A stretch of DNA of 64,000 bases, from assembly GCA_964526655.1 (NCBI GenBank), contig CAZGIZ010000002.1, forward strand, positions 3,291-67,290. Direction: 5' to 3'. The stretch is from an uncultured Desulfobacteraceae bacterium (GTDB lineage: Bacteria; Desulfobacterota; DSM-4660; Desulfatiglandales; HGW-15). This document shows, piece after piece, positions 4,902-39,075 of the stretch (the first letter of the stretch is position 1; every line of letters starts with the position of its first letter). Position numbers and translations under genes: made by a program. The notes below the pieces were generated by a model. It worked only from the letters and a program-made list of their open reading frames with translations. It searched no databases and was not told where the DNA came from.

Positions 4902-5420
4902 ATGAAAAGATTTTTTATCCTTACCGTAATATTCATTGGGATCATGCAGTTGTTGTCGTCAGCCGTGGTGCTGGCAGCGGATGTGAAAATAGGGGTGATC
5001 GATATCCAGAGAATAATGAAGGAATCCAGGGCCGCGAAGAATGCCCGTGCTGTTTTTTTTAAGGATGTTGAGCAAAAGAGAAAGCTCTTCAACGATAAAC
5101 AAAACGAGGTCCAGGCTATGGAGGAGGAGTTGAAGACTAAAGGAAAAGATATGACCCCGCAGGCAAGAAAAGAAAAGACCGATAATCTCGCAGATGAGAT
5201 CAAGGAACTGAAGCGCCTGAGGAGCGATCTGGAAGAGGAGTTGAAGAAAAAAGATAGAGAACTGACCCAGAGACTTTTAAGTGAGATTAGCGTGATAGTA
5301 GGGGAGTATCAAAAGAAAGAGAATTACACCATTATACTTGAAAAGAGATCGGTAGTCGCCTCTGATGAAGCAATCGATATCACGGATAAGATTATTAAAT
5401 TATATGATGTCGTGAAATAG
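4902..5420 (+). CDS. skp: OmpH/Skp family periplasmic chaperone
   Basis: Signal peptide (..VVLAADV). IGVIDIQRIM motif. Long charged coiled-coil region. 172 aa. AGGAG RBS. Confidence 0.85.
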   Translation: MKRFFILTVIFIGIMQLLSSAVVLAADVKIGVIDIQRIMKESRAAKNARAVFFKDVEQKRKLFNDKQNEVQAMEEELKTKGKDMTPQARKEKTDNLADEIKELKRLRSDLEEELKKKDRELTQRLLSEISVIVGEYQKKENYTIILEKRSVVASDEAIDITDKIIKLYDVVK

Positions 5421-5649
5421 CTTATTACCCATTTGAACCCGCGTTAATATGCAGACCTTATCAGACTGTCCCATCTAACAAAATCCACGCCCAAAGGAGA
5501 TGGCCTTGCCTTGAGGCAAAGACCACGAGATTTAAGTAATTTTTAAAAAAACAGGGAAAAGACACTGGATTTGGATTAAAGATTCACTCCGCTTCTGCCG
5601 ATTATTCATTTCAAGAGTTTTGATAAAAACATCGATATTTAGCTCATTC

Positions 5650-5815
5650 AGAACCACCGAGCAGATAATGAAGCTCCCCACCGCAAGCGGTGGGGTATCA
5701 AGCGGAATTCCGCCATAGCAACCCGGCTTCGCTTTTGCAAGCTTCGCCGTGGTTCACCTCGCCATTCATCCCCGCGGCAAGCCGCAGGGTATTCTGGCGA
5801 AGGCGAATAAAATCA
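5650..5815. repeat. GC-rich hairpin repeat cluster (CCCCACCGC-AA-GCGGTGGGG; CCCGCGGC-AA-GCCGCAGGG)
   Basis: Two 8-9 bp GC hairpins with AA loops (5676-5695, 5771-5789) and GGCGAA/TTCGCC inverted motifs, inside a 458-nt non-coding spacer. Confidence 0.5.
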
Positions 5816-5878
5816 TTAATGCCCGGTTAACTTCGGGACATTACTGAGTAAAAAGAATGAGTTAATTGGAGAACAATC

Positions 5879-8260
5879 ATGAAAAATCTCACCACCCTTT
5901 TCGCCGTTTTTACCCTGATTATCATCTCTCCATTTATCGCGCAGGCAGGGCCTGTAGGAAAATTCACAAATGTCGAGGGCAGGGTGGATATTACAAGACC
6001 GGACAAGGCTGCCGTTCCTGTCAAGGTCGGGGATGAGATTTATGAAAAGGATATTATCCGTACAAAGAGTAAATCAAAGGCTGAGATCGTCTTTTTTAAC
6101 GGCAACTCATTACGACTCGCCCAGAGCACAAGAGTGGAAATTTCGGAATGCATCACGGGAGAGCAGCGTAACAGTTCTGTTTTGAGGCTTTTCCGGGGCA
6201 AAATCCAGAGCAAGGTGAAAAAACTCGCTGGAAGGGTCTTTGGGATGAACAGGGACAGGTATGAGGTCCACACGCCCACAGCGGTATGCGGGGTGAGGGG
6301 AACCGATTTCTTCACATTCTACAGAAATGGGGTGACCGGCAATATCTTTAAGGAGGGAATAGGTTACGGCTATAGCAAAAACAAACCGGATGAGGTGAGG
6401 GAGATCCTGCCTGGTCAGACAATGCTTGTTACAAGCCCGGACCAGCCGCCCCTGGTGAGACCCACCACGGAGGAGGAGTTGATTCAGCACGAAGGGGATA
6501 CGGCACCTTCGAAAAAAGAGGAAGAGGGCGATGACGAGGAACAGACCGAGGACGAACAAAAGGATGAGCAGAAAGAGGTAAAAGAGGATTCCAGCGAGCA
6601 GGGTGAAGAAGACCAGGCCGTTGCAGAGGACGAGGGAGAGCAGCAGGTTGAAGCGGATGAAGAAGATCAGGGAAACGGCGGTAATGAGACTGAATCAGTT
6701 GATGCAGGAGCGGGAGTGAAGGCGGGTAAAGAGATTGATGCCGACCCACCGGGGAATGTTGTAAGTGGAGATAGTCCTTCAGAAGATAACGATTTGGGAG
6801 GATATAACGTCGGAAATTACGGTTCTGATGATACTATGGCCATTGATAATCTAAAGCCCGCCGATCCTGGCATAGAAAACGCACCGCCTGTTAAAACCGA
6901 TATGGGAAATACCGCCTCTCTTTTTGAAAATAATCCCCTCTATATTCCGCCCTCAATCCCTACAACAGAACCCTTTAAAATTGACAGTATCAAAATATCC
7001 GGCGACCTTATTGCGGGGCCATACATTTATTACGAGGATGGGAAAGAGGAATCGATATATAATTACTATCAAATGGATATGTCAGGCACCTTTTCAATGA
7101 CCCCTCCGTTTCTTCACATAAACGCTGGTGTTAGAGGAAACATCCTGACCGGGACCGGGCCGCTTAGCGGGGCCTATTATCTGGGCTTTGTCGGCGCGGA
7201 CTGGAGCGATCTCCGGTATGAGAGAGTCCGCGGGGTGGCCGTTATGTTTTATGTGGCCCCTGATGGGAGCGGAGGTATCCTTGACGGCGACATATTTGGA
7301 GATTACCTCAGCTCAGGAACCTGGCAGGCTAAGGGTTATATGGTACCCATAGAGATGGTCGATAGCGGACTCCCCTTTGACTTTCCCCCTATCACTAATA
7401 AACAACTCTTCCTTAATGAGGCGGCCGGTTTTTTTGAGGCGCCCGGCGACGGTACCATATCTGTGGACTGGGGTCACGGTCAAATGCTTTCCATCACCGA
7501 TCAGGACTGGGGGCTATGGCGGTCTGAATTTGGAGGCTCCTTTACAAACAACATATATGATAAATGGGTTATTGAGTGGAAAGACAGCTCTCCTACGCCT
7601 TCAGATGCCGTCCAGCGCTACTATTACACCCTGGGTAAATTCTGGAAAAGGGGTGAGATGGACGGAGATGTATCAGGTGGTTGGGTTGATCTGGAAAAGG
7701 TGACAACCGGTATATTTGAGGGGGGGATGCATGGCGTCTATAACCCCAATGATCCAGCAGGAAACTATTTTGCCGTGTCAGGAGGCGCCTGGATAGAGAC
7801 CAATAAATTTCTTGAGATGGTCTCCACCTCACAGGGACAGGAAAGGTTGAACGCCCTCTATATACCTTGCATTGAAGTGGGCAGGGCTGATCTTTCACTT
7901 TCAGGCAGTGACACGGTTTTTAACGCGGTCAACATGAATAATGTGATCTTCTTTGCCAATTCAACTGGAGGCGCCCCGCGAATCTGGGCCACGAATGAAG
8001 TTGATGGAACCTATTCCTCCATACCCTCGGTGGGTCACGCCGTAAACCTCACGGGAAACGGGCTAAGTGTGGACTTCACGGTTAAAAAATGGAACGACAG
8101 TGTCTGGAGCGCGGATGTCAAGGGCAGTGGAGTATACAGCGGGAGCGGCACACTGAATAATACGGACATCAGAATGGACGGAGGCGCTGCCGGGACCTAT
8201 TCAGGCAGCGATTTCTCGGGCACAGCGGCAGGGGCGTCCCGTGTGTTGCCGCCTCCATAA
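5879..8260 (+). CDS. secreted FecR-domain protein with acidic linker and large uncharacterised C-terminal region
   Basis: Signal peptide (..SPFIAQAG). N-terminal FecR-like region (GRVDITRPD.., VHTPTAVCGVRGTDF). E/D-rich low-complexity stretch at about nt 6490-6700. About 450 aa of G/W/Y/D-rich C-terminus. Confidence 0.7.
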   Translation: MKNLTTLFAVFTLIIISPFIAQAGPVGKFTNVEGRVDITRPDKAAVPVKVGDEIYEKDIIRTKSKSKAEIVFFNGNSLRLAQSTRVEISECITGEQRNSSVLRLFRGKIQSKVKKLAGRVFGMNRDRYEVHTPTAVCGVRGTDFFTFYRNGVTGNIFKEGIGYGYSKNKPDEVREILPGQTMLVTSPDQPPLVRPTTEEELIQHEGDTAPSKKEEEGDDEEQTEDEQKDEQKEVKEDSSEQGEEDQAVAEDEGEQQVEADEEDQGNGGNETESVDAGAGVKAGKEIDADPPGNVVSGDSPSEDNDLGGYNVGNYGSDDTMAIDNLKPADPGIENAPPVKTDMGNTASLFENNPLYIPPSIPTTEPFKIDSIKISGDLIAGPYIYYEDGKEESIYNYYQMDMSGTFSMTPPFLHINAGVRGNILTGTGPLSGAYYLGFVGADWSDLRYERVRGVAVMFYVAPDGSGGILDGDIFGDYLSSGTWQAKGYMVPIEMVDSGLPFDFPPITNKQLFLNEAAGFFEAPGDGTISVDWGHGQMLSITDQDWGLWRSEFGGSFTNNIYDKWVIEWKDSSPTPSDAVQRYYYTLGKFWKRGEMDGDVSGGWVDLEKVTTGIFEGGMHGVYNPNDPAGNYFAVSGGAWIETNKFLEMVSTSQGQERLNALYIPCIEVGRADLSLSGSDTVFNAVNMNNVIFFANSTGGAPRIWATNEVDGTYSSIPSVGHAVNLTGNGLSVDFTVKKWNDSVWSADVKGSGVYSGSGTLNNTDIRMDGGAAGTYSGSDFSGTAAGASRVLPPP

Positions 8261-21732: not shown

Positions 21733-21915
21733 ATGAGACTCTTTTTTTGTCTGATCGGTCTTGTCCTTATTGTGGAAGGACTCCCCTATTTTGCCTTCCC
21801 TGATAAGATGAAACAGTGGATGAAGCTTATCCGGGAAACCCCTGATCGCAAGCTCAGGATTATCGGTTTCACATCGATGTGTCTCGGATTGGTGATCGCC
21901 TACCTGGCGAGGTGA
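21733..21915 (+). CDS. small membrane protein, DUF2065-like
   Basis: MRLFFCLIGLVLIVEGLPYFAFPDKMKQW... has two hydrophobic helices and is about 60 aa. Confidence 0.6.
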   Translation: MRLFFCLIGLVLIVEGLPYFAFPDKMKQWMKLIRETPDRKLRIIGFTSMCLGLVIAYLAR

Positions 21916-21957
21916 CCAACATGCGCTATCTAAATTCAATTTTTTTATAAAGAATTG

Positions 21958-22091
21958 GGATTTTGGTATAACCCTGGGCACCAGCAAGGAGATGCCTGCA
22001 AGTTGAGCCTGCGAACTCCCGCTGAAGAGCGGGAGCGCCGCTCCATAGATCCCGGCTTGACGGGGAGATGACACCTTGATGGTGGATCAGG
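21958..22091 (-). repeat. 134-nt MITE-like interspersed repeat, copy A
   Basis: Reverse complement matches 38898-39031 at 130/134 positions (hand alignment). It ends 15 nt before a TTGACA hexamer. Confidence 0.9.
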
Positions 22092-22106
22092 GGACAGAAA
22101 AACCCC

Positions 22107-22135
22107 TTGACAGTGGAGTTTACATAAAATATACA
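22107..22135 (+). promoter_or_regulatory. sigma70-type promoter candidate adjacent to repeat copy A (faces trpB)
   Basis: TTGACA (22107-22112), 17 nt, TATACA (22130-22135). Confidence 0.35.
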
Positions 22136-22287
22136 AAAAGTTTTAATATTTATTTTCGATAGGGCGGTTATATCAAATAGCTTCGGCTCATTGAGCGGCG
22201 TATTTATAATACAGGCCTGGATTACGGGGGATTTAGAGATCGCCCGCTCAGGGGCGTAACAAAAATAATAACAAAAGGAGGATATTT

Positions 22288-23676
22288 ATGGAGGTCAAAA
22301 AAATATTTCTGCCAGAGTCTGAACTGCCGCGTCAATGGTACAACATCATGGCTGATATGCCAACACCCATGGAGCCGCCACTTCACCCCGGGACAGGGAA
22401 TCCCGTCGGTCCGGACGACTTGTCTCCAATATTCCCGATGCCCCTCATTCTGCAGGAAGTAAGCCAGGAGAGGTTCATCGATATCCCTGAAGAGGTCCTG
22501 GAGAAATATCTCTTATGGCGTCCGACCCCCCTTTACAGGGCCTACAGCCTTGAAAAGTATCTTGATACGCCCGCAAGGATCTATTTCAAGAATGAGGGGG
22601 TAAGCCCGGCCGGCAGTCATAAGCCAAACACCGCCATTCCGCAGGCCTATTATAACAAGATTTCCGGGACAAAGAGAATCACAACGGAGACGGGCGCCGG
22701 CCAGTGGGGTAGCGCCCTGGCCTTTAGCTGCGCCCTTTTCGGCCTTGAATGCAAGGTGTTTATGGTCAAGGTAAGTTATAATCAAAAGCCCTATCGCCGG
22801 ATTATGATGGAGACATGGGGCGCCAGTTGCGTCCCGAGCCCGAGCCCTGAGACCAAGGCAGGCCAGCAGATCCTTGAGAAAAACCCGGACTCCCCGGGCA
22901 GCCTGGGAATTGCCATTAGCGAGGCGGTTGAGGCCGCGGTAACGGATGAAAATTCAAAATACGCCCTGGGAAGCGTCCTTAATCATGTCATGCTCCACCA
23001 GACTGTCAATGGGCTTGAGTGCCAGAAACAGATGGCCATCGCTGGTGATTATCCTGACGTGATTATAGGATGCGCCGGGGGCGGCAGTAATTTCGCGGGG
23101 CACTGTCTCCCATTTGTGAGGGATAAGATCAACGGCAAGGAAATCGATATTATCGCTGTTGAGCCCGCGTCCTGTCCAACAATGACTCGGGGACCTTTCG
23201 CCTATGATTTCGGAGACACGGTCCAGATGACACCGCTGCTCCCCATGTATACCCTTGGTCACAGTTTTGTGCCTGCACCGATCCACGCCGGTGGTCTGAG
23301 GTATCATGGAATGGCGCCTATCGTGAGCCAGCTTATACTGGATAACCTCATAAGGGCGGAGGCGGTTCCCCAGTTGGAGACATTCCAGGCGGGACTGACC
23401 TTTGCGAGGACTGAAGGGTTTATAAGCGCCCCTGAGACCAACCACGCCGTGGCAATGGTCATAAGAGAGGCCATTAAGGCAAAAGAGGAAGGCAAGGAGA
23501 AGGTCATTCTCTTTAACTGGAGTGGGCATGGTCTCGTGGACATGGCCGCATATGAGGCGTATTTGGGCGGGAAGCTTTCAGATTATATTTTGCCCGAAGA
23601 TGAGATCCACAGGGCCCTGGAAGACATCGGTCCCCTTCCCAAACCGAAACAGTATAGACCCGGAACAATCTCCTGA
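22288..23676 (+). CDS. trpB: TrpB2-type tryptophan synthase beta chain-like PLP enzyme (stand-alone)
   Basis: 462 aa long form. [22 protein letters not shown] (PLP-Lys) and [11 protein letters not shown] motifs. No trpA is adjacent. Confidence 0.85.
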
Positions 23677-27662: not shown

Positions 27663-27804
27663 TTATATTAACCATAATAGGAGTTCCGCCTGACCCCATT
27701 CCAGTTCATTTTATGTGTTGAAATATTGCCTGCCTTGGCATATCTATTTCCAAGCTATTTCCGGGACATGATGCTCGGCACAGGACCGGAAAGGTCTCAA
27801 GGGA

Positions 27805-33035: not shown

Positions 33036-33368
33036 CTCCCTCCCTTTCCTTCAAATCCTAAATAGTCAAAAAATTGACCCTGACGTCAAAAAAGTCTTCT
33101 CATACCCATACAGCATCAGTTTGTTCAGATGCCCGGACCTGTCCTGATGGGGTGTGTCAAAGAGACCGCTTTCCCGGATTTGGTCTCTTACCTCCCGTGG
33201 ATACACAGAATTCTTGATGGGTAATTAATTTCTTGAGATCAACAGGCGGATCAGATTTTCGTTTGTAAAAAAAGCAAATCCTGTGCCAACAGAATATCAG
33301 TTATTGATGTTAATTCTTGCCATCGTGTCCGGAAATAGCATGGAAATAGATATACCAAGGCAGGCACT

Positions 33369-33516
33369 GTTATCTCTTCAAGGTGATATAATAAAAGTAG
33401 GCGCAAGGCGTAAGGCACAAGGCTAAAGGTTCCTCAAAAATAAAGCTTAGGGAGTTCATTGTTTCTCCCTGTGCCCTACGCCCTTAGCCCTCGGCTAATA
33501 TCACCTTGAAGAGATA
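33369..33516. repeat. 148-nt long-hairpin element: perfect 20-bp terminal inverted repeat enclosing complementary 7-nt oligo-repeat arms
   Basis: TTATCTCTTCAAGGTGATAT (33369-33388) is the exact reverse complement of 33497-33516. Inner arms CGTAAGGCACAAGG (33408-33421) and CCCTGTGCCCTACG (33466-33479) pair 12/14 on the + strand. Both mismatches are A-C, which becomes G-U on the minus strand. Confidence 0.85.
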
Positions 33517-33539
33517 ATATTGCCGGAACAATACGCCGC

Positions 33540-33683
33540 CGCTTGCCAAAGTCTTGTACGGCGGACAGGCAAGGAGGAGCGATCGCTTGCCCGCCGGCGG
33601 GAAGGCAATCCACCAGAGGCGGATAAACGCAGCTCCTTAGATCCCGGCTTGACGGGGAGATGACACCTTGATGGTGGATCAGG
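33540..33683 (-). repeat. Diverged/partial copy B of the 134-nt repeat
   Basis: 33632-33683 matches the promoter-proximal 52 nt of copy A at 51/52. The distal part is only architecturally similar (GCAAGGAG, CCCGCCGGCGGG hairpin). It ends 15 nt before TTGACA (33699-33704). Confidence 0.75.
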
Positions 33684-33738
33684 GAGGCCCATCGCTGCTT
33701 GACAAATCATATCCCATCTGTTTGAGTTCAAATCACTA

Positions 33739-33767
33739 TTTGACGTTATCATGTTATTTCGTCATAA
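33739..33767 (+). promoter_or_regulatory. sigma70-type promoter candidate for the 33822-36149 gene string
   Basis: TTGACG (33739-33744), 17 nt, CATAAT (33762-33767). Confidence 0.4.
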
Positions 33768-33821
33768 TGTTGACACTTATAAAGAAGACCAAAATATCGG
33801 AATATTCTTTAAGGAGGAAAT

Positions 33822-34190
33822 ATGAGAATCAGGATTAGTATAGGCGGCCTTTCCCTTGAAGGAGAGCTCTATGACACCCCCACAGCCCGAAAGGTAGCGG
33901 AGGCCCTTCCCATAAGGACGGATTTCAATACCTGGGGCGAAGAGATATATTTTCCCATTCCAGTGGAAGCGGAGCTGGATGACGGCGCCAGGGAGGAGGT
34001 GGAGCCTGGAGACCTGGGCTACTGGCCGACCGGAAGGGCATTCTGCATCTTTTTTGGAGAGACCCCCATGAGCACACCCGGAAAAATCATCCCCGCGAGT
34101 GCGGTAAATATTATAGGAAAGGTCTTGGCAGATGTGGAGGAGCTCAAGGATGTGATGGGCGAGAAGGAGATTTTTCTGGAGGCCGTCTGA
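33822..34190 (+). CDS. cyclophilin-like superfamily protein (small beta-barrel, uncharacterised)
   Basis: 122 aa. The pattern G.LYDTPTA..V...LP.....NTWGEEIYF......GDLGYWP.G.AFCIFFG is typical of the cyclophilin-like DUF family. AGGAGG RBS. Confidence 0.6.
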   Translation: MRIRISIGGLSLEGELYDTPTARKVAEALPIRTDFNTWGEEIYFPIPVEAELDDGAREEVEPGDLGYWPTGRAFCIFFGETPMSTPGKIIPASAVNIIGKVLADVEELKDVMGEKEIFLEAV

Positions 34191-38841: not shown

Positions 38842-38853
38842 CAATAAACTTTC

Positions 38854-38881
38854 TAATTTATAAAAAAATTGTCTTTTGTCA
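38854..38881 (-). promoter_or_regulatory. sigma70-type promoter candidate for the tRNA(CAT) gene
   Basis: Minus strand TTGACA (38881-38876), 16 nt, TAAATT (38859-38854). The mature tRNA 5' end at 38841 lies about 13 nt downstream of the -10. Confidence 0.5.
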
Positions 38882-38897
38882 ATCAAATAATCACTTT

Positions 38898-39075
38898 CCT
38901 GATCCACCATCAAGATGTCATCTCCCCGTCAAGCCGGGATCTATGGAGCGGCGCCCCCGCTCTTCAGCGGGATTTCGCAGGCTCAACTTGCAGGCATCAC
39001 CTTGCTGGTGCCCAGGGTTATACCAAAATCCATCGCCATTACTATCGAAATTGTAATTTGATGGTGGATTTTGGC
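38898..39075 (+). repeat. MITE-like interspersed repeat, copy C (full length with terminal inverted repeats)
   Basis: 38898-39031 matches the reverse complement of copy A at 130/134. ATCCACCATCAA (38902-38913) is the exact inverse of TTGATGGTGGAT (39058-39069). Confidence 0.9.

Follow-up and report, generated by a model that had tools for sequence, protein, structure and literature searches.

Bacterial MITEs such as MITEAba12, Chunjie, Nezha and BrickBuilt are small, non-coding, multi-copy and intergenic elements, bounded by terminal inverted repeats and target-site duplications, and their presence varies between orthologous sites. A 2024 review (PMC10969869) describes the known bacterial MITEs with promoters, IHF sites, or RNA-processing sites and effects, and reports a fixed distance upstream of host -35 boxes for none of them. 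The Correia elements of Neisseria (CREE/NEMIS) are about 100-150 bp long, carry terminal inverted repeats, often lie just 5' of genes, have been linked to promoter activity and form hairpins once transcribed. Their own ends supply the promoter hexamers, their TA target is duplicated, and their terminal repeat is 26 nt long (see also PMC10969869).

Tn7 (through TnsD at attTn7), the CRISPR-associated transposons and Ty3 (at Pol III start sites) offer a looser analogy, in that they insert at a set distance, in a preferred orientation and at a harmless site. Tn7 produces a 5-bp duplication, and its TGT...ACA termini are accompanied by arrays of TnsB-binding repeats. For elements of the IS900 type, the landing place is the gap separating ribosome-binding site and start codon; they recombine at a specific sequence, and are devoid of terminal inverted repeats and typical duplications. 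The palindromes derived from IS200/IS605, together with REP/BIME, also have no terminal inverted repeats or target duplication, and their subterminal hairpins lie by a fixed tetra- or pentanucleotide. To our knowledge, and in the literature searched, nucleotide-precise targeting of ordinary promoters has not been described for bacterial transposons.

This study addresses a repeat family found in a window from an uncultured Desulfobacteraceae bacterium, the window being the whole stretch of 64,000 nucleotides that was analysed (GenBank assembly GCA_964526655.1, contig CAZGIZ010000002.1, positions 3,291 to 67,290). Three copies, called A, B and C, were delineated in it together with the hexamers that follow them:

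21958..22091, plus strand: MITE copy A, 5'-truncated and without the left terminal repeat, aligned to copy C and to copy L031 from GGATTTTGG on
22075-22091, plus strand: right terminal repeat of copy A, CTTGATGGTGGATCAGG
22107..22135, plus strand: predicted host promoter of the TrpB-like gene (22288-23676), with -35 TTGACA at 22107-22112, a 17-nt spacer and -10 TATACA at 22130-22135
33528..33683, plus strand: MITE copy B (about 155 nt), a 5'-truncated longer variant with extra interior modules (compare L031)
33667-33683, plus strand: right terminal repeat of copy B
33699..33704, plus strand: TTGACA 15 nt past copy B, with a poor -10 at 17 nt (TTGAGT)
38898..39074, minus strand: MITE copy C, full length, 177 nt
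39074-39057, minus strand: left terminal repeat of copy C, CCAAAATCCACCATCAAA
38914-38898, minus strand: right terminal repeat of copy C, whose left hairpin extends to about 39022, with the long rod next
38855..38882, minus strand: predicted host promoter of tRNA-Met (38842-38767), with -35 TTGACA at 38882-38877, a 16-nt spacer and -10 TAAATT at 38860-38855

A sequence-only reading of this DNA had described 21958-22091 and 38898-39031 as inverted copies, which holds: over 134 nt they are 97% complementary, with 4 differences. The length of 134 nt, taken there as the repeat unit, is only the part common to A and C, as copy C reaches 39074 and measures 177 nt. Copy A starts within the 3' arm of the left hairpin. 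The third copy had been read correctly as showing 1 mismatch within 52 nt (repeat at 33628-33684, 57 nt, 96%), but copy B, at about 155 nt, is no mere 52-nt fragment. A TTGACA does follow the conserved end in all three copies; the spacers counted from ...CAGG are 15, 15 and 15 nt rather than 15, 15 and 16, one position given earlier (38881) being off by one. The plausible -10 elements claimed for copies A and C were recovered as TATACA after 17 nt and TAAATT after 16 nt, and the pseudo-palindrome TTGAT-N5-ATCAG was found in the conserved end, as described. Three occurrences of the 25-mer GATGACAYCTTGATGGTGGATCAGG were counted in the window, where 100 shuffles predict 0.00. The predicted promoter at 22107..22135 is best read as the insertion target, outside the element. 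Near copy B, a better promoter-like site lies at 33740-33768, 5' of the cyclophilin-like gene at 33822.

Other features of the window adjoin these copies. A second, unrelated palindromic repeat with 27-nt inverted ends (GGCACTGTTATCTCTTCAAGGTGATAT / ATATCACCTTGAAGAGATAATATTGCC) spans 33363-33524 and occupies the exact place of the missing 5' half of copy B, cutting that copy on the left; a related 43-nt piece is present in inverted form (27722-27764 versus 33329-33371). This palindromic repeat may be another MITE family. Copies A (+) and C (-), 97% identical and with right ends turned toward each other, delimit a segment of 16.8 kb. The reductase on the C side and the TrpB-like gene on the A side have homologues in relatives that both adjoin one and the same GAF-MshEN-T2SSE gene, missing from the window; this arrangement may reflect a rearrangement linked to the element. 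The predicted tRNA-Met -10 (window 38842-38860) ends 12 nt before the 5' end of the mature tRNA; the precursor leader would be very short.

The family was sampled through exact matches to short probes. Among 185,579 species representatives, the interior 26-mer matched 3 copies in one genome, an uncultured Desulfobacteraceae MAG, and the 21-mer of the promoter-proximal end matched 66 metagenome loci; many sediment metagenomes are represented. After identical flanks were removed, and with the window copies counted in, 63 distinct copies were obtained; these counts are not fully independent, because some copies (L024/L043) are orthologous in related strains. A few loci (L040, L057) match the probe and nothing else of the element, and are probably fortuitous. 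Most copies came from the exact right-end 21-mer, which would bias the sample toward promoter-adjacent copies if that end were conserved only next to promoters. The copies found without this 21-mer, 3 in the window and 3 by the interior 26-mer, are promoter-adjacent in 6 of 6 cases. An nhmmer profile search for diverged copies in 452 kb of locus DNA yielded none beyond those known, and the right-end sampling bias therefore stays. A blastn search of the plasmid collection with a full copy gave no match. As a negative control, viral contigs were scanned with a 17-mer of the right end; the 21 matches are all chance matches in coding sequence (LDGGSG), without a TTGAC at the set distance.

Two irregular kinds of loci were encountered during sampling. 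In a short ENA contig (L075, 1-440), one copy has its flank on the phosphatase side combined with another left flank; this seems to be a chimera assembled through the repeat, and MAGs in which the element abounds call for caution. In L016 and L051, short tandem units (GGTTATAGG, GCTGATAGCTGACGG and similar) lie directly 5' of the right-end remnant and represent a different repeat class.

Judged by its structure and its footprints, the repeat is a non-autonomous, non-coding DNA transposon (MITE) family of uncultured, sulfate-reducer-like bacteria akin to Desulfobacterales. The MITE reading proposed earlier is upheld: the family has terminal inverted repeats and target-site duplications, its copies are many and dispersed, and element-free orthologous sites exist. 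A full copy runs from CCAAAATCCACCATCAAA at the left end to CTTGATGGTGGATCAGG at the right end, and the terminal inverted repeats contain a perfect 12-nt core, ATCCACCATCAA on the left and TTGATGGTGGAT on the right. Both ends are recognisable in 42 of the 63 copies, and the left end pairs with the right end in the consensus fold. A degenerate copy of the motif closes the left hairpin, the loop of which is hypervariable, and a further motif copy (CCTGGGCACCAGCAAGG) forms the base of the long rod together with the right end. Inside, GC-rich hairpin modules make up a mosaic and differ in number between copies. Because this module set varies, full copies range from 147 to 333 nt, the commonest form being 183 nt, which is within the size of less than about 500 bp used to recognise MITEs.

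The element has no coding capacity; stop codons are present in all frames of the interior, and only short, unsupported ORFs overlap it. As it encodes no protein, a transposase encoded elsewhere must move it. Distant pairs of end motifs were sought in all loci, and the 452 kb examined yielded no transposase gene between such ends, so that mobility is read from sequence footprints only. One copy (L059, about 4935-6270) contains an insertion sequence in its left hairpin loop, with a 392-aa DDE-type transposase, ends CAGTGATTTCCGGTTAAGGACTTGCA and a 9-bp duplication ACTTATGAT. This transposase was considered as the partner and rejected, since it belongs to an unrelated insertion sequence inside the copy, with its own ends and its own 9-bp duplication.

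The flanks of the copies are those of inserted DNA. Direct repeats of at least 5 nt flank 17 of 42 copies, whereas random pairing of left with right flanks would give 0.35. If ...CAGGR is taken as the right end, each end extends 5 nt past the shared core, and 20 of 41 copies then show flush duplications of 4-6 bp, mostly 5 bp. Their boundary is uncertain by 1-2 nt, since G(G) closes the element and G opens many targets. The best duplication is that of L030/L054, with GGCCCTGA on either side. Dispersal is evident in the 63 distinct flanks, and in the element-free orthologous sites found for the L054 locus and for window copy A.

When distances were tabulated across the family, as had been suggested from the window, a positional preference for -35-like hexamers was found: a TTGAC starts 13-19 nt past ...GATCAG in 33 of 63 copies, and 15-16 nt past it in 28. 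Elsewhere in the flanks TTGAC occurs about once per 1000 positions, and its reverse complement shows no peak. An alignment of 43 copies on the TTG displays no conservation in the spacer adjacent to the element, and shows T/A at +23/+24 and T at +28, which corresponds to a TAnnnT -10 after a 17-nt spacer. Of the 63 copies, 35 have a strict -35 plus -10 at an end, compared with 1.9% of control windows. Beyond the left end, an outward-facing TTGAC lies at 14-15 nt in 8 of 42 copies, mostly those without a right-side promoter, and the gene on that side reads outward in 7 of these 8. Among the 41 full copies, a -35-like hexamer (TTGnn 12-19 nt beyond the end) was located on the right only in 23, on the left only in 7, at both ends in 5 and at neither in 6; at least one end thus has such a hexamer in 35 of 41 (85%), compared with 13% of controls, and about 15% of full copies have none at either end. 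The right end faces a promoter 3-4 times more often than the left end. By motif and spacing, the flanking hexamers can be taken as real sigma-70-type promoters at a fixed distance from most copies, in several genomes.

The ORFs downstream are co-oriented and start 20-280 nt downstream. These genes are mostly housekeeping and have no functional theme in common; they include gltX (glutamyl-tRNA synthetase), a starch synthase, a member of the DAHP/KDO8P-synthase family, uppS (undecaprenyl-diphosphate synthase), queA, purD, ETF, mdh (malate/lactate dehydrogenase), rpsB (ribosomal protein S2), tRNA-Met, a TrpB-like gene and alpha-ribazole phosphatase. Where no promoter is present on the right side, copies mostly adjoin convergent genes at their ends. 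In right-side cases, the gene upstream reads in the same direction 10 times and divergently 10 times. With this 10:10 split, the orientation of the element is independent of the direction of the upstream gene, and the possibility that upstream transcription sets the orientation was ruled out.

The age of the promoter relative to the element can be read from two sets of element-free sites. The L054 copy has a perfect 8-bp flanking repeat, and its left end lies 15 nt from the TTGACA-N17-TATGAT-N8-ATG of the alpha-ribazole phosphatase gene. Four syntenic orthologues from other genomes (L076-L079; 71-73% protein identity) are element-free and retain AAAGCCCAAATTCA-TTGACA-N17-TATGAT-N8-ATG. The TrpB2 orthologues of the copy A locus (L082-L085; 90-94% identical) are also element-free and retain ACAGAAAAAyCCC-TTGACA-N17-TATACA, their homology with the window extending right to the element junction. 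This set includes one orthologue from a MAG bearing the family elsewhere, and the TrpB2 of the uncultured Desulfobacteraceae MAG CAYTUL01 is 92% identical to that of the window. Since the element-free orthologues keep the same promoter, the element neither carries nor creates it. It inserted some 9 bp upstream of a pre-existing -35 box. The sequence-only reading had proposed that the element either carries or targets promoters; the copies do end at a fixed distance upstream of promoters, but carrying or delivering them fails, as -35 and -10 are both external to the duplicated target and persist in element-free orthologues. For the other option of that reading, a putative site for a dimeric regulator, the observations are a pseudo-palindrome off the FNR/CRP half-site spacing, downstream genes of no common theme and an equal spacing at either element end. 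An empty site was also sought through the identical L054 phosphatase, and all contigs with the identical protein bear the element as well, one of them being the chimeric L075; for copy C, a search through reductase homologues showed that synteny with tRNA-Met is not conserved. At the alpha-ribazole phosphatase gene, the TATGAT lies only 8 nt before the ATG in five genomes (L054 4030-4071; L076-L079), and the mRNA is probably leaderless or nearly so.

What remains to be weighed is why the element and the promoter keep this distance. An element carrying an outward-facing promoter or its -35, and so creating promoters where it lands, would account for the first impression that TTGACA always follows the conserved end. 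Yet copies share no sequence over the 13-16 nt that separate element and -35, the duplicated target falls within this interval, and both empty-site comparisons, with the same -35 and -10 at an equal distance from the gene, refute it, which leaves this explanation with almost no standing. It is also quite improbable that the conserved unit is a structured RNA at the 3' end of the upstream gene, acting as a stabiliser, processing site or terminator, with promoter adjacency being secondary. The pairing of left and right ends in the consensus fold would suit such an RNA, as would the long rod (-59 kcal/mol, z = -3.2) and an excess of G.U over A.C variants of 36 versus 14 by cell count. Counted by pairs, however, G.U and A.C variants are nearly equal (14 versus 12), so that the excess reflects shared ancestry and is no strand-specific evidence for RNA. 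Moreover, both strands fold about equally well, just 3 of the 44 predicted pairs vary on both sides, the rod is not followed by a T-run, and the target duplications and empty sites are those of inserted DNA. With half of the upstream genes divergent, the element strand would often not be transcribed from upstream. There is no Rfam match either: with Rfam 15, only tRNA-Met was detected in the whole window at the gathering score, and nothing relevant at 21900-22300 at E up to 10. The earlier judgement that a structured RNA is unlikely is thus sustained by the Rfam result, the 3 of 44 pairs and the lack of a real wobble asymmetry between strands.

On balance, the spacing is probably fixed at integration, with the element choosing promoters as its landing sites. 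Integration would take place some 9 bp ahead of the -35 hexamer in existing sigma-70-type promoters, with the duplicated target at about -49 to -45, and either end could face the promoter. A transposase or partner protein would read the -35 box or the promoter-bound RNA polymerase and act as a ruler; the insertion would move the DNA upstream of about -50 away by 150-330 bp, and put a stable hairpin in its place. Untargeted insertion is the less probable alternative, and an unlikely one, in which copies persist where the terminal repeat, about 15 nt from the -35 and centred near -58, serves the promoter as an exapted upstream regulatory module. Such a module could be a site for an activator or nucleoid protein, possibly derived from a transposase, or an insulator against read-through. 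The pseudo-palindrome TGAT-N5-ATCA in the promoter-proximal end fits this exaptation, as does the 3-4:1 bias of the right end toward the promoter, and the mostly housekeeping genes downstream would suit a global factor. The truncated copies A and B and the remnants L016 and L058 also retain the promoter-proximal 25-60 nt, although this survival of the right end is partly an artefact of the right-end search. The palindrome is, however, unlike FNR (TTGAT-N4-ATCAA) or the CRP spacing, and orthologous promoters stay conserved where the element is missing. Insertion at random would need to strike a slot of 2-3 nt per promoter, which is far too small to be hit frequently, with every other intergenic insertion being purged; neutral insertions elsewhere, expected to be common if insertion were random, are uncommon. 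The copies with intact duplications are promoter-adjacent in 11 of 14 cases (79%) versus 24 of 27 (89%) decayed copies, a difference that is not significant. We infer from this similarity that target choice is favoured over slow selection, and the same spacing at either end points in the same direction. Within target choice, the -35 sequence itself may be read, given its unusually strong TTGAC match compared with the -10; tethering to the polymerase is equally open.

If target choice is true, the family would represent a new safe-haven strategy, in which the gene and its core promoter are left intact and hundreds of landing sites are available per genome. At many housekeeping promoters, upstream regulatory DNA would be displaced by 150-330 bp and the DNA beyond about -50 rewired, so that the element is a likely source of regulatory change among Desulfobacterales. 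The targeting protein would be a natural promoter-recognising integration tool, and in uncultured genomes the copies flag real promoters at no extra cost.

A full-text literature search for the terminal-repeat sequences returned no paper, and keyword searches returned no description of such a MITE. Set against the described systems, the family is alike to the bacterial MITEs in the traits listed at the outset, and different in that its ends match those of no known partner insertion sequence. It shares with the Correia elements the general size, the terminal inverted repeats, the position 5' of genes, the link to promoters and the hairpins; membership was rejected, as here the promoter is older than the element and wholly external to it, and the duplication is varied and about 5 bp long. 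The terminal repeats of the two are unrelated except for a short GTGGAT stretch. An origin from IS200/IS605-derived palindromes or REP/BIME was set aside on account of the terminal inverted repeats and the variable flanking duplications. Class I activator sites (CRP/FNR) and UP elements are alike in presenting a conserved sequence near -58 of sigma-70 promoters, with a weak palindrome. An FNR or CRP site was rejected, because TTGAT-GGTGG-ATCAG has N5 and an imperfect right half, versus TTGAT-N4-ATCAA or TGTGA-N6-TCACA; the end is not A/T-rich, unlike UP elements, and in contrast to all three the site lies within an inserted element of 150-330 bp with duplications, next to genes that form no regulon-like set. 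Elements of the IS900 type (IS110 family) also have a gene-expression signal as their target and a set orientation, whereas the present family possesses terminal inverted repeats and duplications.

The analogy in targeting is with Tn7, the CRISPR-associated transposons and Ty3. The family is no Tn7-like element, its termini being CC...GG(R) without TGT...ACA, and only the duplication length is similar. The target of those systems is one locus or a guide-defined site, whereas the putative target here is the generic sigma-70 promoter, with hundreds of possible sites per genome. We consider it an even matter whether this transposon family reads sigma-70 promoters, through the -35 box or the bound RNA polymerase, and integrates about 9 bp upstream of them, as a bacterial counterpart to promoter-tethered Ty3 integration in yeast.
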